A stretch of DNA of 32,000 bases from Synechocystis sp. PCC 6803 substr. PCC-P (GCF_000284455.1 NC_017039.1:690001-722000); one strand, 5' to 3'. Shown: positions 9,072 through 31,367, counted from the first letter of the stretch. Notes: generated by a model from the letters alone, not told the origin. Program-made: numbers and translations.

Positions 9072-10916
9072 ATGGTGAGTCATTGCCAAAGGGGGTCAGT
9101 CCAGTCCAGTCGTCCAGATGTGAAAAAAAGGGTTGCTTTTATTGGGCAGCCCAATACAGGTAAATCCACTTTCTTCAACCGGATCACCAAAGCCAATGCG
9201 GCGATCGCCAACTGGCCGGGGTTGACAGTGGACTTATTCCGGGCGGTGGTGCCGTTACAGGGGGAACTAATCGAGTTTGTTGATCTGCCGGGCATCTATG
9301 ACCTCAATGGCTTTTCCGAAGATGAACGGGTGGTGCAACGTTTCCTTGCTAACTATGCCGTCAATTTAGTGGTGGTGGTGGTGAACGCTGCCCAAATTGA
9401 CCGACAAATTCGTCTGCTCCTCCAGGTACAAACCCTAGGCATTCCGGCGATCACCCTCTTAAACCTGGCCGACGAAGCTAAGCGCTACGGAGTGCAAATT
9501 GACGTGGCTGCTCTCCAGGAACGGCTTGGTCTGCCGCTCTATCCCATCAGTGCAAAATACGGAACGGGTTGTAGTCGGGCCATGGATGCCATTGGTCGGG
9601 CGGTGAAGGATCAACCAGAAGCCTACCAAATCCCCAATCTGGTTAATGTTCTTTCCGATCACCCCGTGGCGATCGCCGACATGGAAACGGCCCTGGCCGG
9701 TGTGGTGCAGATGCCATCCCCCAATGCTCGTACCCTCACCAATGTCATTGACGGGGTGATGCTTCATCCCGTTTTTGGCCTACCCATCTTTTTCGCTTCT
9801 ATGTTTGGGGTATTTTGGGTAATTTGGCATGTGGGTTTGCCCAGCGCCGATCCCGTAGATGCGGTAACGGGTTGGGTGCAAAGCAATATTTTAGAGCCGT
9901 TATTTTCCCCCCTACCCACCATCCTGCAAGGACTGCTGTTGGACGGTATTTGGACTGGGTTTGCCGCCCTACTTTCCTTTGTCCCCTTGGTGGCGATCTT
10001 TTTCATTGTCATGGGAATCCTAGAGGGCAGTGGCTATCTTTCCCGGGCCGCGTATCTGATGGATGCCCTCATGGGGCGACTGGGGCTAGATGGACGGAGC
10101 TTTGTGCTGCAAATGATGGGTTTTGGCTGCAATGTCCCGGCCATTATGGGCACTAGGGTCATGCGTAGCCGGGGAATGCGACTTTTATCTATGTTAGTCA
10201 TTCCCTTTTCTCTCTGCTCTGCCCGCCTGCAAGTATTTGTTTTTATCCTGGCGGCTGTTATGCCCGGCACCCAAGGGGCGATCGCTCTGTTTTTACTGTA
10301 CTTAATGAGCTTTGTGGCTGCCTTCACCGTGGCCGCCATTCTAAGTCGTTTTCATTACTTCCAAGCCCGGGACCCCTTCGTATTAGAATTACCCCCCTAT
10401 CGTTTGCCCACCTTTAAGCAGGTATTTTTGCGAGTGTGGGGAGAAATGCGGGAGTTTGTTGCCCGTTTATCGATGTTTATGGTGATTGGTAGTAGCCTCA
10501 TTTGGTTTTTAACCAGCTTCCCCCAAGGTAGTACGGGTTTAGAAACCTTTGCGGGACGCATTGGCAGTGTTTTCCAACCATTAATGAATCCCTTGGGCAT
10601 CAATCCCTTTTTAACGATTTCTTTGATTTTTGGTTTTGTCGCCAAAGAAGTTCAAATAGCAGCCCTAACTGTTATTTATGGTCTCAACAACTCCGAAGCC
10701 GTCTCTGACCAAATCCACAGTACAGTAACCTTTGCCCAGGGTTTTAGCTACTGTTTATTTAGTTTGATCTATATTCCTTGCCTTACTACCCTTGGGGCGA
10801 TTTGGGGTGAAAGTAAATCCCTTGCCTACACTGCTATTTCTGTGGCTACTCCCCTGGTAACGGCCTGGCTATTTAGCTTTATTTTCTACCAAAGCTTTTC
10901 CTGGCTTGGTTGGTGA
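9072..10916 (+). CDS. feoB: Ferrous iron transporter FeoB
   Basis: The N-terminal G-domain has a G1 motif (GQPNTGKST) and a DLPG G3 motif. It is followed by a polytopic membrane domain. 614 aa. Confidence 0.95.
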   Translation: MVSHCQRGSVQSSRPDVKKRVAFIGQPNTGKSTFFNRITKANAAIANWPGLTVDLFRAVVPLQGELIEFVDLPGIYDLNGFSEDERVVQRFLANYAVNLVVVVVNAAQIDRQIRLLLQVQTLGIPAITLLNLADEAKRYGVQIDVAALQERLGLPLYPISAKYGTGCSRAMDAIGRAVKDQPEAYQIPNLVNVLSDHPVAIADMETALAGVVQMPSPNARTLTNVIDGVMLHPVFGLPIFFASMFGVFWVIWHVGLPSADPVDAVTGWVQSNILEPLFSPLPTILQGLLLDGIWTGFAALLSFVPLVAIFFIVMGILEGSGYLSRAAYLMDALMGRLGLDGRSFVLQMMGFGCNVPAIMGTRVMRSRGMRLLSMLVIPFSLCSARLQVFVFILAAVMPGTQGAIALFLLYLMSFVAAFTVAAILSRFHYFQARDPFVLELPPYRLPTFKQVFLRVWGEMREFVARLSMFMVIGSSLIWFLTSFPQGSTGLETFAGRIGSVFQPLMNPLGINPFLTISLIFGFVAKEVQIAALTVIYGLNNSEAVSDQIHSTVTFAQGFSYCLFSLIYIPCLTTLGAIWGESKSLAYTAISVATPLVTAWLFSFIFYQSFSWLGW

Positions 10917-11074
10917 AATTAATCATTAATTCACCCCCTGGGCACTCAAATGACGAGTTTTGTTTGGCAGTTTTCAGTTTAGTAAAGATGCAGGAAAACC
11001 TTTGATAAATGGAAGTGTCAACGCTTCAAACTAAGCTTACTTCCGTATCATAATAGTAGTTTTTGCTTGGACAA

Positions 11075-11111
11075 CCGGAGGGGGAGAGACCACTACATTT
11101 CCCCCGGTTTT
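11075..11111 (+). terminator. Putative intrinsic terminator downstream of feoB
   Basis: CCGG(A)GGGGGA at 11075-11085 pairs with TTTCCCCCGG at 11098-11107. That gives about 10 pairs including two G-U and one bulged A, with a 12-nt loop, followed by TTTT at 11108-11111. It lies 159 nt after the feoB stop. Confidence 0.45.
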
Positions 11112-11239
11112 ACGTAACGGTTTGATGACCCAGTTGAAAACCCTTGACAGCTCTTCAAGGCATAGCCACCCAATACGGAGGTTTTTTACTTGAGCTTTTG
11201 CCCACCTTGGATGGCTTGGGGAGCTTTACTCGGCCTATT

Positions 11240-16156: not shown

Positions 16157-17233
16157 ATGAAACGTCCCACCCTCTACTGTGCAATTACCGGCCATGGTTT
16201 TGGCCATGCGGTGCGGACTGCTTGCATTGCCCGCCGGGTCCAGGAACTTTGCCCTGATGCGTTGATAATCATGGCTACCCGTAGCCCCCGTTGGTTGCTG
16301 GAGTGTTATTTGGAAAAACCCTTTATTCACCGCCCAGTGGCTTTTGATGTTGGCGTGGTACAGGCAGATAGTTTACAGATGGATGAAAAGGCGACCCTGC
16401 AAGCTTTACAGGATATTTACAAGCGGGAAAATGCCCTGGTGGCCACGGAGTCTAACTATTTACGGAACAATCGGGTGGATCTAGTGCTGGCGGACATTCC
16501 GGCCCTGGCAGTGGCGATCGCCCATCGAGCAAATATTCCCTGTTGGATGAGTAGTAATTTCGGTTGGAATTTTATCTATCGAGATTTTAGTGATCAATTT
16601 GGGGTAGTGATTGAGAAAATTGAACGGGATTATCGCCAATGTGATTTATTATTCCGGTTGCCCTTATCGGAACCGATGGAAATTTTCCCCTATCAAATCC
16701 AAGCTGGCTTACTGGGGGGCGGTCCTCAATATGGGGAGCAGAGTTTAAGAAATACCTTTGCCATTAAAACTGCTAAGGAAAAAACTATTTTGCTCACCTT
16801 TGGGGGTTTAGGTTTAGAGGCTATTCCCTACCAAGTATTAACTCAATTTCCCGACCATCAATTTATTACCTTTGACATCCAAGCTCCTAAGTTAGATAAC
16901 CTGACCATTATCAATGATAAAACCTATCGCCCGGTGGATTTAATGCCCCTTTGCGGACGGGTATTTTCCAAGCCTGGTTTTGGTACCTTTGCTGAAGCGT
17001 TAAAGTTAGAAGTCCCGATTATTTCCCTCACCAGGGATGGTTTTGCGGAAGCGCAAGTTTTACTGGCAGGTTTGCAGAACTACGGAGAGCACCAAATTGT
17101 GCCCCACCAGCAATTTTTCGCCGGCAACTGGGATTTTTTGTTGGAAAGCCCCCAAAAACCTAGGTTGGATCAGAAGTTAGACAAACATGGCGATCGCCAG
17201 ATAGCAGAAAAAATCGTCGCCCAAATTAGTTGA
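16157..17233 (+). CDS. Putative GT-B fold glycosyltransferase (MurG/GT28-like)
   Basis: The 358-aa ORF has an N-terminal ITGHGFGHAVR glycine-rich loop and a C-terminal FSKPGFGTFAEAL...VPII motif, both typical of GT1/GT28 enzymes. The functional call is tentative. Confidence 0.6.
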   Translation: MKRPTLYCAITGHGFGHAVRTACIARRVQELCPDALIIMATRSPRWLLECYLEKPFIHRPVAFDVGVVQADSLQMDEKATLQALQDIYKRENALVATESNYLRNNRVDLVLADIPALAVAIAHRANIPCWMSSNFGWNFIYRDFSDQFGVVIEKIERDYRQCDLLFRLPLSEPMEIFPYQIQAGLLGGGPQYGEQSLRNTFAIKTAKEKTILLTFGGLGLEAIPYQVLTQFPDHQFITFDIQAPKLDNLTIINDKTYRPVDLMPLCGRVFSKPGFGTFAEALKLEVPIISLTRDGFAEAQVLLAGLQNYGEHQIVPHQQFFAGNWDFLLESPQKPRLDQKLDKHGDRQIAEKIVAQIS

Positions 17234-17234
17234 T
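17186..17234 (+). repeat. Left copy of the island-flanking direct repeat (the functional 3' end of the glycosyltransferase gene)
   Basis: These 49 bp align to 20067-20146 with 47/49 identities plus 18-bp and 13-bp indels. The repeat begins at a HIP1 site (GCGATCGC, 17190-17197). Confidence 0.85.
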
Positions 17235-17363
17235 TTTGTCCCCCAACTCGGAAAAAGTCAGGGGATTTTGGTAAACCATAAACCTGGGGTTAACCTCTGG
17301 GAAGCCGTTCATGGTTGTTCATGCCGTATGCTTTTACGATCTAAATGCTATCTGACACCTCCG

Positions 17364-17392
17364 TTGACTTAATAAAACTTAATCCAAATAAT
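17364..17392 (+). promoter_or_regulatory. Candidate sigma70-type promoter facing the cassette array
   Basis: TTGACT at 17364-17369, a 17-nt spacer, then AATAAT at 17387-17392. This sits about 130 bp upstream of the first cassette boundary. It is a sequence match only. Confidence 0.3.
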
Positions 17393-17538
17393 TTGACTTA
17401 GTGGTTCTTTTCAGGCATTCTCTCAGCATTAGAAGGCTGAGTATGGGTTTTAATGCTGTTTATCCTTACAAGTTAAGTGATAAATGTGCATTAAGGATTC
17501 CCATTGCAGTCTAATTACTGGTTAGCTGCAAATAAAAA

Positions 17539-18156
17539 ATGAAAAAACCAGATATTGATGTGTATTGCAATGTAATGGAAGAAATCAAGCGACGAACAGG
17601 CGTTATCGATTTTTTTCTATCTGGTAATGGTCACGCTTTATGTGAACCTACAACACTGGAATCAATTGCGCTGCAAATCAGGAAAATCCTAGAGCTAATA
17701 GCTATGGCGTCACTTGTAGCAAACGAAAAAGAATACAAAAAGGTATATTCCAATTTTGCCAGCGCATGGAATGCAGAATATTTACTAAAAGACTTAGGCA
17801 GAATTAATCCTGATTTTTACCCTAAACCAGTCGTAGAGAAACTTTCTGATGACCCTAAAGTAAAAAATCGCCTAGCAGATCGTGACGAAGACTATCTAAC
17901 CAAAAATGAATTTATAAAAGTTTACAAGAAATGTGGCGCAATCATGCATGCGAGCAATCCGATGGGTCGCAAAATAGGCTATGAATACTACAAAAAGAAC
18001 ATTCCAGAATGGAGACAGAAGATAATAAACCTCCTAAACAACCACCAAATTAAGTTATTTAATCACTCTGGCTTTTATCTAATTCATATGAAAGAAGATC
18101 GTGATGATAAGGTACATTTTTATGAATTCGACCTTGTGCAAACCACAAGCAGCTAA
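17539..18156 (+). CDS. Cassette 1 ORF, hypothetical protein (205 aa), no recognised domain
   Basis: The ATG lies 12 nt after the cassette boundary. The stop codon (18154-18156) is embedded in the attC inverse core. The gene is AT-rich and the protein is Lys/Glu/Tyr-rich. Confidence 0.7.
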   Translation: MKKPDIDVYCNVMEEIKRRTGVIDFFLSGNGHALCEPTTLESIALQIRKILELIAMASLVANEKEYKKVYSNFASAWNAEYLLKDLGRINPDFYPKPVVEKLSDDPKVKNRLADRDEDYLTKNEFIKVYKKCGAIMHASNPMGRKIGYEYYKKNIPEWRQKIINLLNNHQIKLFNHSGFYLIHMKEDRDDKVHFYEFDLVQTTSS

Positions 18157-18222
18157 CAAAACGCTCGTTCGAGCGCAAACTACAATGCGCTTCGTTTGCG
18201 CTGCACAGCTTCAACGTTCGGC
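18151..18222 (+). other. attC site 1 (72 bp)
   Basis: R'' is AGCTAAC and R' is GTTCGGC. The stem GCGCAAAC (18173-18180) pairs with GTTTGCGC (18194-18201) and extends with bulged G18171 and C18166. About 5-nt unpaired spacers sit next to the R boxes. The L''-like GTTCGAGC resembles class 1 attC L boxes. Confidence 0.72.
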
Positions 18223-18290
18223 GGGCTTGCTTGCCAGCACTCTTTTCATTAAAATAGTATAGCAGTCTGTATTATCGGCATTCAACTCTG

Positions 18291-18914
18291 ATGGATAATC
18301 TAACCGACTTTGCATTCAAGCTCGGGAAGGTCGTTTACAAAGTTATTCGCGATGTCGAGGCATCAAAAGATGATTCGACCAAGCTCATCCAAGACCTTGG
18401 CGGCTTAAGCGGTGAAAAGATACTACTTCAGAAAATCGCCAAGTTTTGGAATCAGCAAGACCGCTGGGATAGACCCGATGGCCTCGTCATAGTAACTAGT
18501 CACAGACTTGTCTTTTTAGCTAAAATGAAGACGGTCGCATCAACAACAGATTATCTCAGCTTTCCATTGGGGTTGATTGACGAACTTGAAGCTACCACTG
18601 TATCTTGGGTCAGTCCAGCAATTGCATTTCACGTTAATTCGACGAAGTATATGTTCACATTCTTTGCCGGATCGGATGAAGTCGTTGATGCGATCCGATC
18701 GGCCAAGGTAACACTAGAATCAATATCCATTAATTCGCATTCAGATCCCTCAAGCACTGGGCGAGATATTCCTGTGCAACTCCTACCCGACATGATTCGA
18801 TTTCTATGCCCAGATTGTGAGGCTTCAGTCAGAGTTAGGCGTAAACAAGCAGGAAGGCTAGGAAAATGCCCCGAATGCGGTGGTGTTTCACGGATCCCAA
18901 TCGATGGAAGATAG
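18291..18914 (+). CDS. Cassette 2 ORF: PH/GRAM-like domain protein with a C-terminal CxxC...CxxC zinc ribbon (207 aa)
   Basis: The central segment (PDGLVIVTSHRLVFLAKMK ... YLSFPLGLIDELE ... YMFTFF) resembles bacterial PH/GRAM-like folds. The C-terminus is FLCPDCEASVRVRRKQAGRLGKCPECGGVSRIP. The domain call rests on my pattern recognition only. Confidence 0.7.
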   Translation: MDNLTDFAFKLGKVVYKVIRDVEASKDDSTKLIQDLGGLSGEKILLQKIAKFWNQQDRWDRPDGLVIVTSHRLVFLAKMKTVASTTDYLSFPLGLIDELEATTVSWVSPAIAFHVNSTKYMFTFFAGSDEVVDAIRSAKVTLESISINSHSDPSSTGRDIPVQLLPDMIRFLCPDCEASVRVRRKQAGRLGKCPECGGVSRIPIDGR

Positions 18915-19036
18915 AATGCCTTAGTCAACTTAAAGACATCCCAGATTGTTAGAAAGTCTAACCACCCAATGAGAACTAGGCGAAGGTTTTGTCAAGTCCT
19001 GAAGATGCCGTTCACCAGATCTATCTCATCATTGCT

Positions 19037-19127
19037 GCCGAACAAGCCCCTTGAGTGGACAGTCCGCCACCGGTCTTTTGCATTACAATTTTAGGGTTAC
19101 CACCTGCCCCTAGGGCCAGCGTTAGCA
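19037..19127 (+). other. attC site 2 (91 bp)
   Basis: R'' GCCGAAC is the exact reverse complement of GTTCGGC at the cassette 2 start. R' is GTTAGCA. Internal pairing is weaker (CCCT 19048-19051 with AGGG 19112-19115; GTGG 19055-19058 with CCAC 19100-19103). The site lies 122 bp after the ORF stop. Confidence 0.55.
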
Positions 19128-19146
19128 TTCAGAAAATCCACGAGAG

Positions 19147-19899
19147 GTGCGTCGCCCAATACAAATTCATCCTTTAATACACATTCAAAGCATGAATACT
19201 ATTGATTTTGAAAGAGTGATCAGAGCACTTATCAAAAGTGGATTTCTCTTTTCAGCTGCCGACTTCAATGAGCGCAGGCGTGCAGCTGATAAAGTAGCTA
19301 CATCTGGATTGATTGAAAAGACAAATTTTTGGTGCAACGTTGCAATAAAAGGTGCGATACCTGTTATCGAATCATCTTTCGACGTAGACATCCCTTCAAA
19401 TCAGTTCCGATTCAAGCCTTCTATGCAGGATTTCAATGTTAAAGAAGATGAATTGAGTGCAATGCTCTTAAAACTTGGGATGAATATGGATGCGGTTGCA
19501 TTTCGATATGCTTACTCCCAGCCAGTATTCGTAGGTGTGAAGTTTGCAGCATCTCTTTCGCCCGAAGCTCGAAGATCTCTTTTTGAGTCGTTTGATCGTC
19601 AGATGCTTAACTGTCTCTCCCTTACTTCTTCAATGAAAGCAGGTTTTGGAAGCGTAAAGATGTCAGTAACTGGATTCGTTTTATGGATATTTACGAATCA
19701 AAGCGGAGCAAATAATTTCAGCTCTGTGGAAAAGGAAAGCTTGAGAAAGATGCATTTTTGGGAGAAGGTTAATTCACTGTCCTGGGTCGTCGATCTTGAA
19801 ACGAACTCAATAGCTAAACACAAAGGGCTGCCAATCATTCTTGATTCAGTCTTTAATGTAAAGGCATTTGAGGATTCTCTGAAGCTTGACGAATACTAA
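19147..19899 (+). CDS. Cassette 3 ORF, hypothetical protein (250 aa from GTG 19147; 235 aa from ATG 19192)
   Basis: This is the only long ORF in cassette 3. The stop codon (19897-19899) lies inside the attC inverse core. I recognise no domain. Confidence 0.7.
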   Translation: MRRPIQIHPLIHIQSMNTIDFERVIRALIKSGFLFSAADFNERRRAADKVATSGLIEKTNFWCNVAIKGAIPVIESSFDVDIPSNQFRFKPSMQDFNVKEDELSAMLLKLGMNMDAVAFRYAYSQPVFVGVKFAASLSPEARRSLFESFDRQMLNCLSLTSSMKAGFGSVKMSVTGFVLWIFTNQSGANNFSSVEKESLRKMHFWEKVNSLSWVVDLETNSIAKHKGLPIILDSVFNVKAFEDSLKLDEY

Positions 19900-19981
19900 C
19901 AACCGAGCTGCACCGGAACGCCATAAGCTGTTTGGTTGGGTTACAAAGGTTATCTGCGTCTGGTGAGCTTAGTCGTTAGGC
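19894..19981 (+). other. attC site 3 (88 bp)
   Basis: R'' is TACTAAC and R' is the canonical GTTAGGC. AGCT(G)CACC (19906-19914) pairs with GGTGAGCT (19962-19969), leaving G19910 extrahelical. The imperfect stem continues inward. The 5-nt spacers are AACCG and TAGTC. Confidence 0.72.
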
Positions 19982-20066
19982 CCCATACAAAATTTAAGAC
20001 CTACCCACCAGAACTTCTTTGTCACCAGATTCTTACTGTAAGCGCCTCCGTGCTTTTGCAATCGTC

Positions 20067-20146
20067 CATGGCGATCGCCAGCAACGTTATGGTCGCCAGA
20101 TAGCAGAAAAAATTGTTGCCCAAATTGGCTAATGATATTAGTTGAT
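20067..20146 (+). pseudogene. Right copy of the flanking direct repeat: a displaced, still in-frame duplicate of the glycosyltransferase 3' end
   Basis: It encodes HGDRQQRYGRQIAEKIVAQIG*, versus HGDRQIAEKIVAQIS* at 17186-17233. Both substitutions in the shared Ile-Val codons are synonymous. It begins at HIP1 (20071-20078), and no homology exists upstream of 20067. Its last 7 bp overlap the cofG 3' end. Confidence 0.8.
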
Positions 20147-21079
20147 AAAAACTGATAGCCGTTGCTGTAAATCACAATTGAGCCAGGAAAAATAAGTGGG
20201 ATAAACTGGAAACCTTGGTTGCAATAAATAGCCATTTTCTTCTAGCAATTGACTTAGTTGATTCACCGATTGGTGATGATAATCAGGGTTAACTTCATCA
20301 ATGGGTACAATGCCACCTAAATCCCTAACTCCAGCAGCTAAACAAGCTAGTAGATCACTGAAATTTGGCACTAAATTAGGCGGTATTTGTAGGGTAATTT
20401 CTGCGGGTAATATTGCCCTTGCTAAGGTAATAACTTGCACCAATTTTTGTGGGCTGTAGGCGGAAATATTATCTGTTTGTTTTTGCCCAGGGCTATGGGG
20501 TTGCAAAATCACCTCTTGAATGTGGCCGTATTCTTGTTGAACATTGGCGATCGCCATTAAACTCTCTTCCACTTCCTGGTCAGTTTCCCCAATGCCCAGT
20601 AATAAGCCAGTGGTGAAAGGAATACCCAATTCCCCTGCTAATCGTAATTGTTCTAACCTGAGCTGGGGTTCTTTACTGGGGGCTTGACGATGCACTGTGG
20701 TTAATAGTCGGGGAGAAACCTGTTCCAGCATCAACCCCAGGGAAAAATTCACTTCCTTTAAACGAGCTATTTCTGATCGACTTAAAGGCCCCGCATTGGT
20801 GTGGGGATAAAATCCCAAATCTAGGGCGATTTTGCCTAGGTTATAAATAAGTTCAAACCAAGCTTTTCGGCGGGAAGATTGGGGATGCACTTCCCCCGCC
20901 AGAATTAAAATTTCCCTTATCCCCCGCCCTGCCAAACTTTCCAGTCGCTGTTTAGCAACGCTTTCGGTTAACCATTGGTCTTTTCTTGGCTCCTGCCGGA
21001 AATTGCAGTAACTACAACGGTTAAAACACTCGTAGGTGGGAACCAGAGTATAGGCGGGACTGTAAGTGATAGACAACAC
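20138..21079 (-). CDS. cofG: Radical-SAM FO synthase subunit CofG (7,8-didemethyl-8-hydroxy-5-deazariboflavin synthase)
   Basis: The N-terminus reads ITYSPAYTLVPTYECFNRCSYCNF (a CxxxCxxC cluster in CofG context). 313 aa. Confidence 0.8.
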   Translation of the reverse strand: MLSITYSPAYTLVPTYECFNRCSYCNFRQEPRKDQWLTESVAKQRLESLAGRGIREILILAGEVHPQSSRRKAWFELIYNLGKIALDLGFYPHTNAGPLSRSEIARLKEVNFSLGLMLEQVSPRLLTTVHRQAPSKEPQLRLEQLRLAGELGIPFTTGLLLGIGETDQEVEESLMAIANVQQEYGHIQEVILQPHSPGQKQTDNISAYSPQKLVQVITLARAILPAEITLQIPPNLVPNFSDLLACLAAGVRDLGGIVPIDEVNPDYHHQSVNQLSQLLEENGYLLQPRFPVYPTYFSWLNCDLQQRLSVFIN

Positions 21080-26410: not shown

Positions 26411-29400
26411 CTAAAATTCCCCGCCATGGGAATTTACTATTTTTTGTCCTATTTCTAGATCAATTAATCCATTGCTCTGTTCAATGTGCTTAATCAATTC
26501 CCTATAGGCTGGAGCGAATTGCAACTGGGATGAATTACCTAAAATGACTAGCTTACTTTTTGCCCTGGAAATACTGACCAATAATTTCCGGTCTGTTCCC
26601 TGGCGATCGCCATCAGCGATGCTTTGAATATTTTTAACCTGCTTAGACCAAGAAATGGTAGTGGAAAAAATAATTAATTCTCTTTCATCCCCCTGGAATC
26701 TTTCCACCGTATCCACCACAATGGAATCCCTTGAAAAATCAGCGCCAGCAAAAATTTTTTCCAATTGTTGATTAATTTCCGCTACCTGAGCCCGAAAAGG
26801 AGCAATAATGCCAATTTCTGCCATTGGCAACAGTTTGTTTTCCCAGTAAGTTTTGACGATGGTCGCCGCAATGATGGCTTCGTTAGTATTCTTGCGCTGA
26901 ATACTAGTTTCCGATGGGGTTTCAATAAAAATAGTTCTACTCTTACTCAATTTACTTAACAAGTCATTGTCATTATTTTCGTAACTTGACTCAATTTTTC
27001 GCTGTTCCTGTGTTTGCTCCACCAAAGGGCGATCGTAATGATGGGCTATCAATGAAGCAATATCTCTATGCATACGATAATGCTCAGTTAGTTGTCCGTA
27101 ACAATGATTCCATCCCTTATTTTTGGCATTATTAATTAATCTTTCAAACAAAGATATTCTCAAATCGCTAATGTTAATGGCATAGCGTCGAAATGGCTCA
27201 ACTTCAACTCGACATTCCTCTTCATTTTGAGTAATTACTGCTGGCAGTTGCTTTTGATCACCAATCAAGACAAATTTGTTGAATAAGACCACTATTCCGG
27301 CTAGATCAGCCTCCGTTAATTGGGAAGCTTCATCAATGATTAGCTGATCAAATTCACCAACAAACTCCCTGAGTAATAAATATTTATCTTTAAACGTGGA
27401 AACAGTTGTGACAAATACTTGATTTTCTTGTAAATACTTCCGCCAAAGATCCGCATTATCTCCAGTTAATTTTTCGGCCAGCAAACTTTCATCAACTACA
27501 GTTTTGTTACCTAAACGTAGGTAATCTATTAGCTCTCCATAGCGTGGGGATTTAAGGGCTTTACAAATCTGTTCCACTGCCTTATTCGTAAAAGCCAGGA
27601 TAAAAATATTTTTCTTGTTTAATTTAAGTAAATTTTGTACGTAATTAACCAAAAATATACTAGTCTTCCCCGTACCTGGTGGTCCTTGTAGTAAATAATA
27701 ATGCTTAGCCTCGAGAGCCTGGCAAATAATTTGATTTTGATCATTGCTCAGGTAAATATTTACCTGATAATCTATTAACGCTTTTTGTGGCTCCAAATGC
27801 CCTAAAAGTAATTGTTTTTTCTCCATGGAACAAGACAATACTTCCAACAAACAGACAATACTACTCCAGTAGTTGCGCTCGAAAATATCCGGCTCTAAGG
27901 CCCAAAAATTATATTGCTCGATAAATGAATAGTCATTTTGCTTGTTAAATAAAGAAACTATTATTTGATTCTGATTAATTCCCTTGATCGAACCTTTAAA
28001 AATATGTTGTTTTAACGGTTCATATACACCATTTATTTTGGGATGAATAATTACTATGTCACCAGAACGGAATGAATGGGGCACATCAGTCTGAGTCAAT
28101 GCTAATGAAAGATAACTTTTCTCTTTGTCAACCTTGATTAGTTTAAGATCATAAATTAAGCGATAATTATTTTGTTTAACATTAAAATTATCTAGCCACA
28201 AACTAGCAAACCCTGTCGATGTTTGATGCTTATCTTCCAACTCAGATTGCTGATGATCTGATATTTTATTGTTAATTAATTCCCGTAGAATGAACGAGAG
28301 TAGCTGTTGATAATAGTTTGTCGTCAACTTTTCTGGCTGGTAGTTTTGTTGAAAACGCTTTAATCGTCGTTGATTATATTCTGGTAACTCTCCAGCACCA
28401 TCAGATTTAAGTTTATCTAAGCTAATAAAGTTGCCCGCAGCTAATTGGTAAATTTTGCTAACAATTTCATTTCTGATTTTAATCAACTCATTTTTTTCTT
28501 GAGATTCGCTAACAATATTTCTGCGGGGCTGATCTGATTTTGAGTAAAATATCTCCTTGTTACCCACATAATTTCCGTAGGTACTTTCCAGCATCATGTT
28601 ATATGCCACCACCTGCATTTTATGATTTTTCCATTCTCTACCTGGATAGGGAGCGCCACCACTTTTTAGCTCAATAATATCCTTAGATCCGTTTGAGTCG
28701 ATAGTTAATAAATCTAGTCTTCCTTGTAGACCATAATGTTGTGAAAAAAATGTAGGTTCAATCCAAATTCTTAAGTTTTCTGCCTGTAATCTCTGCACTA
28801 ATTGACTGATGTTAGGTAGATGTTCTTGAACAATCGACGTTTGAATATTTGTCATCTCCTGTTCGCCAAGATAAGCAGATCTCAGAGCATCTGACTTTTT
28901 GTAATCTGTAAAAATTTGAGCAATATTAATTTGCTTATTTCTGACTAGCTCATCTAGGCAGTAACCTACAATGGTTCCTTTAAAAGCTGCAGCACCAGCT
29001 AATTCTCCTACTAGTTTGGTTAGCCAAAAAATATCACTGCTCGTATTTTTGTTGCCAAAACACTCACTGATGGCGCTGGCATCTACCAGAAAGTCCGGCT
29101 CAATAACGATTAATGATTCTGATTTGGCCTGATATTTATTTTCAGCTACTGGCACCAAATTATGGCAAGCGATTAATGTATCTTCCTTCAATATGTCAAT
29201 CAAATAAAATAAATGGGGAGCATTAAACCAATCACACTCTATGACAATGTTTGTTTGTAGGTTTTCTAAATCAAAACCGTAGAGATGAAATGCCCGCTTT
29301 GATTGACTTCTGTGGTGCCCTGTGTATAAAAGCTTCAGGTACTTGGTAGACGGCGATCGCCTTGCTTGAAAAAGCTTGGTAAAATATTGATTGTTATATT

Positions 29401-29773
29401 TACTATTGTCAAAAGTGAATCCCAGTAGTTCGGAATTTTCAGTTGCTTGCAGGCATAATTTTTGGAGCAACAAGATTCCTTGCTCAATGGCAACTTGGTT
29501 GACTTTTTCAGAAAATCCCCTGCGGATAAATTTCCGGAAAGCTTCAAAATTGCTTACATCTTCTTCGTCTAGATTTATTTTGCTAATACAATACCTAAAT
29601 TTTGCATAAAAATTTCTGAAAACTATATTTTCAGGTTCAGTAAAAGCTTTGATGAACTGATAAAAAAGCTTAGAGATTTCATAAAATTTTTCCTTTAAGC
29701 TCAGCTTAGCTTCACCAAGTAAGTATAAACTTTCGCATATTCCTGAAGCTTTTTGCTTATCGTTCATCAACAA
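26411..29773 (-). CDS. Fusion protein: RecB-type PD-(D/E)XK nuclease plus SF1B (Upf1/Dna2-like, AAA_11/AAA_12) helicase, 1120 aa
   Basis: Nuclease motifs are GRLDLL (D354, nt 28714-28706), IIELK (E368-K370, nt 28672-28664) and QVVAY (nt 28615-28601). Helicase motifs are the Walker [10 protein letters not shown] (nt 27688-27662), IIDEASQ, GDQKQLPAV, HYRMHRDI, VERFQGDERELIIFS and VSISRAKSKLVILG. The gene is markedly AT-rich. The track start is a TTG, and ATG 29767 is probably the real start. Confidence 0.9.
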   Translation of the reverse strand: MLMNDKQKASGICESLYLLGEAKLSLKEKFYEISKLFYQFIKAFTEPENIVFRNFYAKFRYCISKINLDEEDVSNFEAFRKFIRRGFSEKVNQVAIEQGILLLQKLCLQATENSELLGFTFDNSKYNNQYFTKLFQARRSPSTKYLKLLYTGHHRSQSKRAFHLYGFDLENLQTNIVIECDWFNAPHLFYLIDILKEDTLIACHNLVPVAENKYQAKSESLIVIEPDFLVDASAISECFGNKNTSSDIFWLTKLVGELAGAAAFKGTIVGYCLDELVRNKQINIAQIFTDYKKSDALRSAYLGEQEMTNIQTSIVQEHLPNISQLVQRLQAENLRIWIEPTFFSQHYGLQGRLDLLTIDSNGSKDIIELKSGGAPYPGREWKNHKMQVVAYNMMLESTYGNYVGNKEIFYSKSDQPRRNIVSESQEKNELIKIRNEIVSKIYQLAAGNFISLDKLKSDGAGELPEYNQRRLKRFQQNYQPEKLTTNYYQQLLSFILRELINNKISDHQQSELEDKHQTSTGFASLWLDNFNVKQNNYRLIYDLKLIKVDKEKSYLSLALTQTDVPHSFRSGDIVIIHPKINGVYEPLKQHIFKGSIKGINQNQIIVSLFNKQNDYSFIEQYNFWALEPDIFERNYWSSIVCLLEVLSCSMEKKQLLLGHLEPQKALIDYQVNIYLSNDQNQIICQALEAKHYYLLQGPPGTGKTSIFLVNYVQNLLKLNKKNIFILAFTNKAVEQICKALKSPRYGELIDYLRLGNKTVVDESLLAEKLTGDNADLWRKYLQENQVFVTTVSTFKDKYLLLREFVGEFDQLIIDEASQLTEADLAGIVVLFNKFVLIGDQKQLPAVITQNEEECRVEVEPFRRYAINISDLRISLFERLINNAKNKGWNHCYGQLTEHYRMHRDIASLIAHHYDRPLVEQTQEQRKIESSYENNDNDLLSKLSKSRTIFIETPSETSIQRKNTNEAIIAATIVKTYWENKLLPMAEIGIIAPFRAQVAEINQQLEKIFAGADFSRDSIVVDTVERFQGDERELIIFSTTISWSKQVKNIQSIADGDRQGTDRKLLVSISRAKSKLVILGNSSQLQFAPAYRELIKHIEQSNGLIDLEIGQKIVNSHGGEF

Positions 29774-29834
29774 TGTTCAGTAAGAGAACTGTAAAAACTT
29801 AGCATAGTCATATGGGTTATGAGTTCACTCTGAA

Positions 29835-31367
29835 TTAATTAAGGCGGTCGATGATAGACAAAGCCCCTCCTCCTAAGAGTGCTCCAATTGGACTAAATAA
29901 TTCCCTGAGGGTATCGGTAGCTTGAGTTAAACCACTGGTGTTAACTAAGACTACATCATTGTTTCTTAAAGTTGGATTTTTGTCAGAACTAATGTTAAGA
30001 CTAAAGTCAGGGGCGATATTAAGTCTCGTAACTGTGCCATCGGGATTTAAACGAATTAGATCAACGCTGGCTTTATCCGCCCGAATCGGGTCAAAGGAAC
30101 CGGCGGCCAAAATTGCTTGGTTTAAGGTGGAATTAGGCTGTAGCTGGATAGCACCACCTCGTCGCACTTCCCCCACAACGTTAACAGTGATGGAGCGGGG
30201 TGAAAAATTGGCAGTGGCAATGGCCTCAAATTCATCTGGTGACACTTCTTTAGCCTGGGGAACTGTAATGACGTCGCCGTTTTGGAGGATAACGTCTTTA
30301 TCTAGGTTGCCTTCGTCTAAGAGTTCCCAAAGATTGACCACAATCAACTCAAAGTTCCCGTCCCGATTTTCTCGCCGCACTTCCACATTGCGAATATCTG
30401 CTTGGGATTTAATACCACCGGCTTCTTGGATTGCTTGGGTCAGGCGCACCGGCTGGGTATTTTCTACGTTGGCACGACTGCTAGTTGCGGCTGTGCTGCT
30501 GTTGTCACCACTCACTTCGGTGATACTAGAGGCTCTAATGGCAGGGGAAATTTTGTAAGAACCAGGGCGAAAAATTTCCCCAATCACCGCCACGTTAATT
30601 TCTTGCTCAAAACGAATACCAAAATTTGCGTCGGCTAATTGTCGCACTTCCCTCGGATCTGTGGCAGTTTTGCTTGGGATAACCACAATATCACCATCTC
30701 TTAGGGTGACGTTTTGACGGGAATTTCCTTTCTGTAGCAGTTCCCACAGGTTGATGCTGTAGTTTTCTTGTTGATTACCCTTTTGCCGCCGCAGCTGCAC
30801 CCGACTGATGTCTGATACTGGGGTGAGACCGCCAGCCTGTTGAATTACTTGGGTGAGGGTAGGAAATTTCTGCCCGCCTTCGATCGCCAGGGCGTAGGCG
30901 CCGGGGGAATTGACCTCACCGGAAAGGGTGATGCTTAGGGGGCGAGGGACAGTCAGAATGGCAGTGACCAAGGGACGGCGAATATATTTTGCGTACTGGC
31001 TAACTAAAATTTGGTTTAGTTCTGGGATGGTTAGGCCGGCAACTCTGACAGTGCCAATGAGGGGAAAACCCACTGTGCCGTCCACTAAAACTTGATATTC
31101 TCCCGATAACCCTTCCACCTGCAGCACATCGACCCGGAGGCGATCGCCGGGGCCGAGGGTGTATTCACTCTCTGGAGGCAGGATAGAGGGAGCGTTTTGG
31201 GGACTGGTCTGCGGTAATAGACTAGGGGAAGGACTACCAATTTGAGCAAATGCTTCCTGTGTCCACAGACCTAAACAGGCCATGGTGGTTACCAGCACTG
31301 CACCACCGAGTTTAGAAGGGAAGGATTGACTAGGATTCATAGCATTCATCAAATGGAGAAAAGCCAA
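29835..31367 (-). CDS. wza: Outer-membrane polysaccharide export protein (Wza/GumB-like; Poly_export plus repeated SLBB domains)
   Basis: There is an N-terminal signal sequence and a YTLGPGDRLRVDV Poly_export motif. The LRDGDIVVIP / LQNGDVITVP / LRNNDVVLV SLBB-type motifs are repeated. 510 aa. Confidence 0.85.
   Translation of the reverse strand: MAFLHLMNAMNPSQSFPSKLGGAVLVTTMACLGLWTQEAFAQIGSPSPSLLPQTSPQNAPSILPPESEYTLGPGDRLRVDVLQVEGLSGEYQVLVDGTVGFPLIGTVRVAGLTIPELNQILVSQYAKYIRRPLVTAILTVPRPLSITLSGEVNSPGAYALAIEGGQKFPTLTQVIQQAGGLTPVSDISRVQLRRQKGNQQENYSINLWELLQKGNSRQNVTLRDGDIVVIPSKTATDPREVRQLADANFGIRFEQEINVAVIGEIFRPGSYKISPAIRASSITEVSGDNSSTAATSSRANVENTQPVRLTQAIQEAGGIKSQADIRNVEVRRENRDGNFELIVVNLWELLDEGNLDKDVILQNGDVITVPQAKEVSPDEFEAIATANFSPRSITVNVVGEVRRGGAIQLQPNSTLNQAILAAGSFDPIRADKASVDLIRLNPDGTVTRLNIAPDFSLNISSDKNPTLRNNDVVLVNTSGLTQATDTLRELFSPIGALLGGGALSIIDRLN

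Follow-up and report, generated by a model that had tools for sequence, protein, structure and literature searches.

Three integron-type gene cassettes without an integrase lie between two copies of a glycosyltransferase gene end in Synechocystis sp. PCC 6803

Results and Discussion

A duplicated gene end brackets an island of 2.8 kb

We analyzed a stretch of 32 kb from Synechocystis sp. PCC 6803 (substr. PCC-P; 32,000 nucleotides, in the following called the window), in which the gene for a glycosyltransferase (GT) is separated from the convergent gene cofG by an island of 2.8 kb. The genes and the two GT ends are arranged as follows:

16157 to 17233, plus strand: GT gene, an ORF of 358 aa with weak family matches (Glyco_trans_1_3, MJ1255)
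17186 to 17227, plus strand: left repeat copy, a HIP1-containing 15-mer followed by a 27-mer
17228 to 17279, plus strand: GT stop (AGT TGA) and 46 bp, evidently imported, as judged from continuous BLAST matches to L001 and L002 and from the alignment
20067 to 20099, plus strand: junction block, the full HIP1 15-mer and an 18-bp segment with a second TCGCCAG at its end
20100 to 20132, plus strand: GT end, evidently native and displaced, ...IAEKIVAQIG with the stop TAA at 20130–20132
20138 to 21079, minus strand: cofG, FO synthase subunit (NF004884, E 7.7e-118), convergent with GT

A reading made from the sequence alone had aligned the two GT ends over 49 bp with 47 identities, starting at a HIP1 site and running into the cofG stop region, with extra segments of 18 and 13 bp in the right copy. 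The repeat proved genuine. The 15-mer CATGGCGATCGCCAG, with which it begins at HIP1 in both copies, is present without any change at 17186–17200 and 20067–20081, and the 27-mer ATAGCAGAAAAAATCGTCGCCCAAATT at 17201–17227 returns at 20100–20126 with two mismatches. In 100 shuffled windows the 27-mer gave no match with up to three mismatches, showing that the repeat is not due to chance. The two substitutions are indeed synonymous (ATC to ATT, GTC to GTT), and the right copy stays in frame up to its own TAA at 20130–20132. The 18-bp segment CAACGTTATGGTCGCCAG was also found, at 20082–20099; it is present in four of the five occupied loci and absent from LEGE 06083, and is hence not private to the PCC 6803 genome. 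The last 19 bp of the earlier alignment, however, were misaligned. Comparison with the relatives establishes GGC TAA (20127–20132) as the homologous counterpart of AGT TGA in the left copy, while the AGTTGA that had been matched (20140–20145) represents the last codons of cofG on the opposite strand, a hexamer that occurs 12 times in the window. The secure repeat therefore comprises 42 bp, of which 40 are identical, plus the 18-bp extra segment. The supposed 13-bp insertion, GGCTAATGATATT, is the tail of the right copy. In genomes of the S. salina group the duplicated unit extends past the GT stop to GGTAAACCAT (17279) and measures 94–96 bp in total.

That the window contains 28 HIP1 sites, at one of which the repeat starts, could make the repeat appear as a coincidence caused by HIP1 abundance. 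We rejected this idea, the probability of which we consider practically nil, on the basis of the shuffling experiment and because the structure is kept in four other genomes. No HIP1 site is present between 17190 and 20071; HIP1-free gaps of about 2.7 kb exist elsewhere in the window as well. The GC content is 0.37–0.45 within the island versus about 0.48–0.54 over most of the flanking sequence.

A foreign end terminates the gene and the native end is displaced

In the relative L033, the GT gene (96% identical) ends with ...CAAATCGGCTAATGATATC, 5 bp away from the cofG stop, and reads ...AQIG-TAA exactly as the right copy does. Indeed, the tail of the right copy, taken together with the end of cofG, corresponds to the only GT end in L033, and the same kind of tail is found in PCC 7338 and in the metagenome contig L045. 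L035 and L036 have their GT gene directly opposite cofG, too. Because the GT gene of these relatives ends directly opposite cofG, with the same end in L033, we assign the right copy as the displaced native GT end, in line with the earlier idea of a once functional gene end that was displaced by an insertion. L033, L035, and L036 show the arrangement expected of an empty site, with the reservation that L033 could be a loop-out revertant instead of a never-occupied site.

The left copy reads ...AQIS-TGA-TTTTGTCC. In L002, L001, and L034, the segment 17228–17279 is the native spacer between GT and the ATPase gene, ending with GGTAAACCAT, and in L002 it continues straight into the 3' end of a P-type ATPase gene. 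While the body of the GT gene is of the PCC 6803 lineage type, the part from about 17191 to the end is of the type of those lineages that have the ATPase gene downstream. The informative sites are L033-like up to 17188, S. salina-type from 17191 to 17297, and L033-like again from 20127 onward; mixed patches are seen at 17038–17152. Because the same sequence is the gene end of lineages with an ATPase after GT, we assign the left copy and the 52 bp downstream as imported from such a Synechocystis lineage. The proposal that the replacement end was brought by incoming DNA is thus supported. In both the window and PCC 7338 we find the mosaic flanks that are expected of a transfer, with sequence of the donor type between the crossovers and of the recipient type beyond them. 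The analysis of the flanks hence shows that an end from a foreign lineage now terminates the gene on the left, while the gene's own former end sits behind the HIP1-containing junction on the right.

The island is an array of three integron-type cassettes

Between the two GT ends we find three ORFs, all on the plus strand and each with a candidate attC site directly 3' of it, framed by a small platform:

17280 to 17374, plus strand: left spacer, AAACCTGGGGTTAACCTC..., common to LEGE 06083 and PCC 7338
17375 to 17521 (147 bp), plus strand: platform core, attI-like, common to all four platform-bearing loci
17522 to 18216, plus strand: cassette 1 with ORF1 (17539–18156, 205 aa) and candidate attC1 (18152–18222)
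18217 to 19121, plus strand: cassette 2 with ORF2 (18291–18914, 207 aa) and the weak candidate attC2 (about 19037–19127)
19122 to 19975, plus strand: cassette 3 with ORF3 (19192–19899, 235 aa, function unknown) and candidate attC3 (19895–19981)
19976 to 20066 (91 bp), plus strand: right platform, TTAGGCCCCATACAAAATTT...GCAATCGTC, its first base directly following the G of the last attC

The island is thereby shown to be an array of three integron-type gene cassettes without an integrase. Each cassette combines an ORF that lacks its own promoter with a downstream attC site, and neighbors are joined at G|TT; candidate attC2 is weak. The ORF–site order in one orientation and the G|TT boundaries are as expected for such cassettes, and relatives of attC1 and attC3 stand in cassette arrays, one of which adjoins an annotated integron integrase. 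As attC we accepted an imperfect inverted repeat of 57–141 nt that is closed by R'' (...AAC) and R' (GTT...) and contains unpaired or extrahelical bases; candidate attC3 and the consensus of the attC1 family both form such a hairpin. An Rfam search gave no match.

For cassette 1, ORF1 belongs to PHROG 13799 (phrog_13799, E 4.5e-39) of unknown function, and its protein homologues in Marinomonas, Hydrogenovibrio, and Oceanospirillales are 79–85% identical. The DNA homology to these genomes is limited to 17521–18159 and starts with G|TTAGCTG; in Marinomonas the homologue is followed by a textbook attC hairpin. The attC1 site itself is 84–90% identical to three sites of the Thiolapillus plasmid pTBH13, each located 3' of a gene, and the identity stops at GTT. 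The pTBH13 array contains toxin–antitoxin and other small genes, and the plasmid carries no annotated integrase. Folded alone, attC1 performs no better than shuffled sequences; its support comes from homology, with the family giving a consensus hairpin that includes one compensatory pair. Cassette 3 is in its entirety 94% identical to a metagenomic cassette array (L041:302–1166), with homology from GCG|TTAGCA to CG|TT. Its attC3 folds into an imperfect hairpin closed by CTAAC and GTTAG, which includes a bulge and internal loops (z −1.7 and −1.1). A site with 82% identity to attC3 is found in the cassette array on the Kovacikia plasmid pB; it lies downstream from a gene annotated as integron integrase, the product of which shares 50% identity with IntI1. 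The limits of cassette 2 are defined by its neighbors, namely by the end of attC1 and the start of cassette 3. ORF2 (320 homologues at E ≤ 0.001) combines an N-terminal domain of unknown function with a C-terminal zinc ribbon, for which all matches are below the curated cut-offs. Candidate attC2 is not convincing, folding no better than shuffled sequence.

No integrase was found. The three cassette ORFs gave no match to a recombinase family, a tblastn search with the Kovacikia IntI gave no hit, neither in the 32-kb window nor in the Synechocystis loci, the Pfam lists for the genes within 10 kb on each side contain no integrase, and six-frame translations of the platform gave no coding remnant. 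The earlier statement that no recombinase lies between the copies is thus confirmed. Because no integron integrase was found in the window or the Synechocystis loci, the enzyme to which the G|TT junctions point is lacking. The locus is hence not a complete integron, which would have intI adjoining the array. It corresponds to a CALIN, defined by two or more attC sites on the same strand at distances below 4 kb, with no intI nearby: candidate attC1 and attC3 are 1.7 kb apart and the 32-kb window contains no intI match.

The platform recurs in other Synechocystis genomes with different cargo

The left tail, the platform, and the right junction recur in PCC 7338, LEGE 06083, and the metagenome contig L045, and LEGE 00031 has the left tail and the right junction with only fragments of the platform. 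The duplication was thus not made in this genome. The 147 and 91 bp are shared with these three other loci, which bear different cassettes at the same G|TT junctions; in related strains this position is taken by other cassettes or is empty. In the window the cassettes start at G17521|T17522, and the identity of the platform stops at ...TGG|TTA, after which three different first cassettes follow. A fixed ...TGG|TTA that appears to receive different cassettes behaves like an attI site. The 3' part of the platform core contains strong hairpins (17443–17530, fold z-scores −4.8 and −5.3), and a promoter-like site at 17364–17392, a consensus match only (10/12 scan matches), overlaps the 5' edge of the platform. 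The first 18 bp of the left spacer are also present in LEGE 00031; at this position L045 has a fragment of the ATPase 3' end, to which the spacer 17280–17374 shows no significant similarity. The right platform, which is not derived from GT, is kept in LEGE 06083, PCC 7338, and L045, with its last 29 bp also in LEGE 00031, and in four loci it is the same TTAGGC... sequence that comes after the last attC. In PCC 7338, two IS transposase genes are inserted into the platform.

The cargo in the relatives includes the anti-phage genes SoFic and PDC-S39: One of the three other platform loci holds a candidate anti-phage gene, and the fourth other locus contains the SoFic defence gene with only platform fragments. 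What follows the right copy differs between genomes. It is GGCTAA and cofG in the window, PCC 7338, and L045, and AGTTGAGTTTGCC with an intact ATPase gene in LEGE 00031 and LEGE 06083. In L045, the left flank runs on into an 88-bp fragment of the ATPase gene (score 118 versus a shuffle maximum of 37), and no ATPase gene is present there. PCC 7338 is on its GT side 94% identical to S. salina, while its cofG side shares more with the window (90%) than with S. salina (83%).

How the array may have spread

We consider it likely that the island is a CALIN that is spread through homologous recombination, probably following natural transformation, with the GT gene and the trailing copy of the GT end as arms. 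The cassettes would be loaded and swapped by an integron integrase that acts in trans, or would have been loaded before the integrase was lost. The whole module would then pass between Synechocystis genomes with the help of the host's homologous recombination, with the left crossover in GT and the right crossover in the short copy of the GT end behind the array. With each entry the donor's GT end would replace that of the recipient, whose own end is left stranded on the far side; because it is the recipient's own end that is stranded, its neighbor would be cofG in some genomes and the ATPase gene in others. By recombining with each other, the two copies could also excise the island as a loop, which would give the gene its native end back. 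The right junction may originally have arisen through illegitimate joining at HIP1.

The sequence-only reading had called the geometry typical of elements that integrate into a gene's 3' end and carry a replacement end, and had noted that no recombinase lies between the repeats. Such an island, driven by an integrase that has since been lost and carrying the replacement end in its attP, would explain that the cargo is compositionally foreign and flanked by direct repeats, and that the gene was restored by the incoming end with the old one displaced. Of the hallmarks of such islands, the direct repeats and the restored gene are present, but an encoded site-specific recombinase is not: the islands of all five occupied loci lack one. 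Additionally, the common backbone amounts to only 147 + 91 bp, and the cargo units are bounded by the G|TT of integrons. The replacement end is no element-borne attP arm, because it is ordinary chromosomal DNA of another Synechocystis lineage, found in L045 together with the ATPase fragment. We therefore regard the integrase-driven island as very improbable. The second choice of the earlier reading, short-homology or HIP1-associated recombination after natural transformation, comes nearer to the evidence. In sum, the earlier observation is partly confirmed and its interpretation partly supported.

A purely vertical history, with one ancestral insertion, cassette swaps in place, L033-like sites as deletions, and no passage between genomes, is in our estimate distinctly unlikely. 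The platform diverges by 7–11% between genomes, similar to the flanking core genes, and recombination between the copies would yield exactly an L033-like end. Part of the distribution could therefore indeed reflect vertical descent with in-place swaps and occasional loss. However, the module is found in two right-hand contexts, each of which equals a native single-copy arrangement (GT|cofG in L033, L035, and L036; GT|ATPase in L002). An intact ATPase gene follows the module on its right side in LEGE 06083 and LEGE 00031, while L045 contains no ATPase gene and carries the fragment on the left; PCC 7338 shows mosaic flanks, and a deletion is unlikely to recreate the GT-stop/cofG junction of the outgroup. 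A variant of our main explanation, rather than a contradiction to it, is a Campbell-type route, in which a looped-out circle with one copy of the GT end would enter a naive genome again through one crossover at that end. The integration of circular DNA by single crossover is routine in Synechocystis genetics, and every occupied locus has the geometry of such a product; the expected circular junction is ...GCAATCGTC-CATGGCGATCGCC...GGTAAACCAT-AAACCTGG.... To the right of the crossover one would expect the recipient-type ATTGCGG, as in L033, but the right copy in the window has ATAGCAG. This objection would fall away with gene conversion or if the recipient was different from L033. We view this route as rather unlikely.

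Relation to known systems

Recombination that combines one homologous anchor with microhomology is known as homology-facilitated illegitimate recombination. Spread by homologous recombination would fit the fact that integrons and cassettes can be moved by transformation (PMC3410848; PMC12614218). The transformation-mediated transfer of integrons (PMC3410848) shares with the present locus a long homologous anchor, here GT, and a very short homology or microhomology, here the 27–42 bp from HIP1. Here, in contrast, the short arm is a copy of the anchor gene's own end that travels with the cargo, making the arms reusable in each genome.

CALINs are common and mostly have no integrase remnants nearby (Cury et al. 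2016, PMC4889954). Like them, our island has at least two candidate attC sites on one strand within 4 kb, each located 3' of an ORF that lacks a promoter and has no known function; it shares its cassettes with distant phyla, and neither an intI gene nor an intI pseudogene is close by. Unlike them, it occupies a small platform that is kept in several Synechocystis genomes and carries different cassettes at one fixed, attI-like G|TT, and a copy of a host gene's 3' end stands on either side of the whole array. A sedentary chromosomal integron, such as the Vibrio superintegron, is likewise chromosomal with strain-variable cassettes and anti-phage cargo (SoFic and PDC-S39 in the relatives); the island differs in having no intI, only 1–3 cassettes, a position tied to a host gene end, and attC sites from different sequence families instead of one host-specific family. 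Integrase-type islands at gene 3' ends show the same direct repeats of the target end, with an incoming copy that restores the gene and the old end on the far side, and the tycheposons of Prochlorococcus are a cyanobacterial example of islands with replacement gene ends. Our locus differs from integrase-type islands by the missing integrase, by an end that is sister-lineage chromosomal DNA and not attP, and by a conserved backbone of less than 250 bp.

Conclusion

In summary, three integron-type cassettes without an integrase are inserted behind a GT gene that now terminates with the end of another Synechocystis lineage. One may tentatively go further and see in this locus an integrase-free mobile unit, in which a cassette platform carries a copy of the host gene's 3' end as homology arms. 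If this is true, the platform would possess a built-in pair of arms, resembling a laboratory knock-in construct, with which naturally competent Synechocystis could install it behind GT regardless of whether cofG or the ATPase lies downstream. Each entry would strand the recipient's gene end, and recombination between the two copies would make the loss of the island reversible.

Results and Discussion

The 3' end of the glycosyltransferase gene (GT) is present in two copies, which bracket the 2.8-kb island.

Features of the interval between GT and cofG
16157-17233, plus strand: GT
17186-17200 and 20067-20081: 15-mer CATGGCGATCGCCAG of the left and right copy, containing the HIP1 octamer
17201-17227 and 20100-20126: 27-mer of the left and right copy
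20082-20099: 18 extra bp between the two blocks of the right copy
17539-18156: ORF1
18291-18914: ORF2, same strand as ORF1
19192-19899: ORF3, same strand as ORF1
20127-20132: GGC TAA closing the right copy
20138-21079, minus strand: cofG, FO synthase subunit gene, convergent with GT

The duplication reported in the sequence-only reading is real: the 15-mer is exact in both copies and the 27-mer recurs with two synonymous mismatches. HIP1 has 28 sites in the window, but their abundance does not explain the repeat, because 100 shuffles of the window yielded no match to the 27-mer at up to three mismatches. The main points of the alignment proposed in that reading held, but its final 19 bp were misaligned. 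The AGTTGA at 20140-20145, a hexamer with 12 occurrences in the window, belongs to cofG codons on the other strand, and alignment with relatives showed GGC TAA to be the counterpart of AGT TGA. The CofG C-terminal tail itself varies by lineage (...QQRLSVFIN in the window, 20138-20190; ...QQRLPVFAN in L033:1953-2005; ...QRCLPDSVAAKG in S. salina, L001:15254-15315), showing that the gene end facing the variable locus evolves quickly. Between the copies the GC content is 0.37-0.45, HIP1 is absent, and family searches found no recombinase signature in the three ORFs.

An identical GT is encoded on 24 contigs, one of them a 3.57-Mb chromosome, and the arrangement is the same in 24 of 24. The surrounding genes (FtsH, FeoAB, GAF-domain histidine kinase, TetR regulator, GT, cofG, esterase, SpoIID) form what we take to be the slr1390-sll1283 region of Synechocystis sp. 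PCC 6803. The predicted empty site, with GT ending directly opposite cofG, exists in three relatives: in L033, whose GT is 96% identical, GT ends ...CAAATCGGCTAATGATATC with the cofG stop 5 bp beyond, and in the more distant L035 and L036 (84%) the two genes lie end to end. In the alignment, the tail of the right copy and all sequence beyond it match the single GT end of L033, so that the right copy is the lineage's native gene end, displaced by insertion, just as had been suspected. A second kind of empty site was found in the metagenome-assembled genome L002. Here GT ends ...AQIS-TGA, followed after 48 bp by a P-type ATPase gene, which lies between GT and cofG and is convergent with GT. The left copy and the next 52 bp of the window (17228-17279, AGTTGATTTTGTCCCCC...GGTAAACCAT) are of this ATPase-type kind. 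At informative sites the window is L033-like up to 17188 and ATPase-type from 17191, with a few mixed patches at 17038-17152, which means that the GT end now in use was imported. Alternatively, L033 may have lost the island by loop-out; such a revertant would be indistinguishable from a site that was never occupied.

The genes inside the island were then assigned by their homology boundaries. ORF1 (PHROG 13799, a widespread family) is 79-85% identical to its homologues in the marine gammaproteobacteria Marinomonas, Hydrogenovibrio and Oceanospirillales, where the gene stands alone between housekeeping genes. DNA similarity of cassette 1 to these genomes is limited to 17521-18159 and begins at G|TTAGCTG. 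The putative attC1, the 65 bp that follow ORF1, is 84-90% identical to three sites in the Thiolapillus plasmid pTBH13. There, toxin-antitoxin genes and other small genes form an array on one strand, and each of the three sites lies 3' of one of them; the identity extends from TAACAA to GTT and no further. attC3, the 74 bp that follow ORF3, is 82% identical to a site in the Kovacikia plasmid pB, again with identity ending at GTT; that site lies 3' of a gene in an array starting beside an annotated integron integrase, itself 50% identical to IntI1. Cassette 3 as a whole (19122-19975) recurs as a 94% identical unit in the metagenomic array L041, preceded there by a different attC, and its homology extends from GCG|TTAGCA to CG|TT. 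Cassette 2 is bounded by its neighbours only, and its candidate attC2 is not convincing. Another of the three cassette genes, not ORF1, has an 85% identical homologue in a Nostocales cyanobacterium. Judged on these alignments, attC relatives and G|TT-bounded homology are the defining behaviours of integron gene cassettes. An Rfam search gave no match, and two versions of our own crude attC scanner missed attC1 and attC3. Run at a setting that yields 0-2 matches in a shuffled window, the second version picked up sites in Thiolapillus and L041, which we do not count as evidence.

Several further observations concern the homologues. Behind the ORF1-type gene of Marinomonas lies a textbook attC hairpin (z -2.9 and -3.6). 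The comparison of window 17521-18159 with L024 (Marinomonas ostreistagni) and L037 shows the ORF1 family joined to unrelated attC sites by host, Marinomonas-type hairpin versus Thiolapillus-type attC1; an ORF is thus not bound to move with one particular attC. Two ~215-bp repeat copies (CCTTGTAGGACCGCGCTGCGCGCGGGAACAACCT...) lie upstream of the solitary Marinomonas cassette (L024:9260-9700). In Dolichospermum flos-aquae (L039:10760-11100) the ORF3 homologue is followed not by attC3 but by degenerate tandem repeats, each with a HIP1-like GCGATCGC, in a neighbourhood rich in toxin-antitoxin and restriction-modification genes. The AlphaFold models of ORF1 (pLDDT 89) and ORF3 (pLDDT 83) gave no significant match in fold searches, and sequence searches of the PDB returned nothing significant. 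All hints from the predicted structures, HEPN-like for ORF1 and restriction-endonuclease-like for ORF3, are weak (E>0.1).

The G|TT junctions point to the action of an integron integrase. With the Kovacikia integrase as tblastn query, neither the 32-kb window nor any of the Synechocystis loci retrieved gave a match; with IntI, matches in the plasmid collection were saturated by class 1 integrons. With cassette behaviour and no integrase found, the island fits the CALIN, a published class (PMC4889954). The assignment as an integrase-type island was thus not borne out; the element is instead an integrase-less cassette array in a small platform common to Synechocystis lineages.

We compared the window with four further occupied loci.

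Occupied loci other than the window
L034, Synechocystis sp. LEGE 06083: one cassette, 171-aa ORF plus glyoxalase; right copy, then ATPase-type tail and intact ATPase gene
L044, PCC 7338: same cassette as L034, platform split by IS elements; right copy, then cofG directly
L045, metagenome contig with PCC 6803-like synteny: one cassette, 581-aa DUF4209 protein; right copy, then cofG directly
L001, S. salina LEGE 00031: SoFic gene in place of most of the platform; right copy, then ATPase-type tail and intact ATPase gene

The L045 cassette protein (9408-11153) belongs to the candidate phage-defence family PDC-S39 (PADLOC, E 2e-43), and its attC groups by sequence with attC1 and the Thiolapillus sites in one family. 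The Fic gene L001:11182-12408 was assigned to SoFic (PADLOC, E 8e-106); 18 bp of the left and 29 bp of the right platform remain there, and the edges of the replaced stretch do not coincide with G|TT boundaries. A left-hand stretch of 147 bp, ending ...TAATTAMTGG, is common to the window, L034, L044 and L045; beyond it, alignment shows three unrelated cassettes, each starting TTA. These loci also share 91 bp on the right, starting TTAGGC directly after the last attC. With three unrelated cassettes at one point, the left platform acts as an attI site would; next to it, neither an integrase gene nor a remnant of one was found. Its 3' part (17443-17530) folds far better than shuffles on both strands (z -4.8, -5.3), with a small palindrome TGCAGTCTAA...TTAGCTGCA across the G|TT insertion point. 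A promoter-like hexamer pair at 17364-17392 is a consensus match only. In L044 (9283-11048) two IS-type transposase genes interrupt the left spacer immediately 5' of the platform core, and the insertion splits the promoter-like TTGACT...AATAAT site. The idea that the right platform is a diverged duplicate of GT coding sequence was rejected, as 117 of 500 shuffles score as well.

How did the module come to occupy these sites? The left flank is an ATPase-type GT end in five of five occupied loci. In L045 it runs into an 88-bp ATPase 3'-end fragment (score 118; shuffle maximum 37), with no ATPase gene present there. This is the only real fragment of its kind; a decayed ATPase remnant at window 17280-17352 was dropped, the similarity not being significant (435-740 of 1000 shuffles). 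The junction ...GCAATCGTC-CATGGCGATCGCCAG, which holds one and a half HIP1 sites, precedes the right copy in all occupied loci, and the 18-bp segment is present in four of five. Beyond the right copy we find GGCTAA and cofG in the window, PCC 7338 and L045, and AGTTGAGTTTGCC... with the intact ATPase gene in the two LEGE strains. These comparisons indicate that the flanks travel with the module and that the stranded end is local and genome-dependent. PCC 7338 resembles S. salina on its GT side (94%); on its cofG side it has 90% identity to the window and 83% to S. salina.

The simplest account would be that the module entered genomes of both kinds by homologous recombination, with GT as left arm and the trailing GT-end copy as short right arm. 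With each entry, the gene end native to the recipient would be left stranded. For the window, this account would put the right crossover within 20107-20126. Synechocystis is naturally transformable. Transformation moves integrons and cassettes (PMC3410848; PMC12614218). Platform divergence of 7-11% is similar to that of core genes, so part of the distribution may reflect vertical descent with in-place cassette exchange. Two scans for exact platform sequences in metagenome contigs returned no match, and the plasmid and phage collections contained no copy of the platform or GT end, with matches to attC sites only. The first right junction may plausibly have formed by illegitimate joining at HIP1 in the course of a homologous event on one side. 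LEGE 06083, whose right junction lacks the 18 bp, could have lost them by slippage between two TCGCCAG repeats or by conversion by the left copy.

Foreign composition also marks a further region of the window (GC 0.35 over 3 kb, profile 27001-30000; 0 HIP1 sites between 26610 and 29353). A 1120-aa ORF (26411-29773, minus strand) coincides with this region. Its Pfam matches (PDDEXK_1, ResIII, AAA_11/AAA_12) point to a helicase-nuclease, which may be a further defence-type gene gained from outside.

Conclusion

In summary, the sequence evidence identifies the island as an integron cassette array that lacks an integrase, which is a type already described. Like a CALIN it holds cassettes without an integrase; its own difference is the unusual setting, in which copies of a host gene end bracket the array and appear to serve as portable homology arms. 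Three 'hypothetical' genes of the PCC 6803-type chromosome, as placed by synteny, are thereby accounted for as integron cassettes. Across Synechocystis the site is variable and carries a known anti-phage gene (SoFic), a candidate one (PDC-S39), a glyoxalase cassette (in two relatives), or nothing. The HIP1 site at the recombination junction bears on the old question of a role of HIP1 in recombination, and the repeat pair predicts a simple experimental route to deletion or replacement of the island. The locus offers a concrete, testable case of how, in a host capable of natural transformation, integrase-less cassette arrays can be maintained, trade cassettes and spread.
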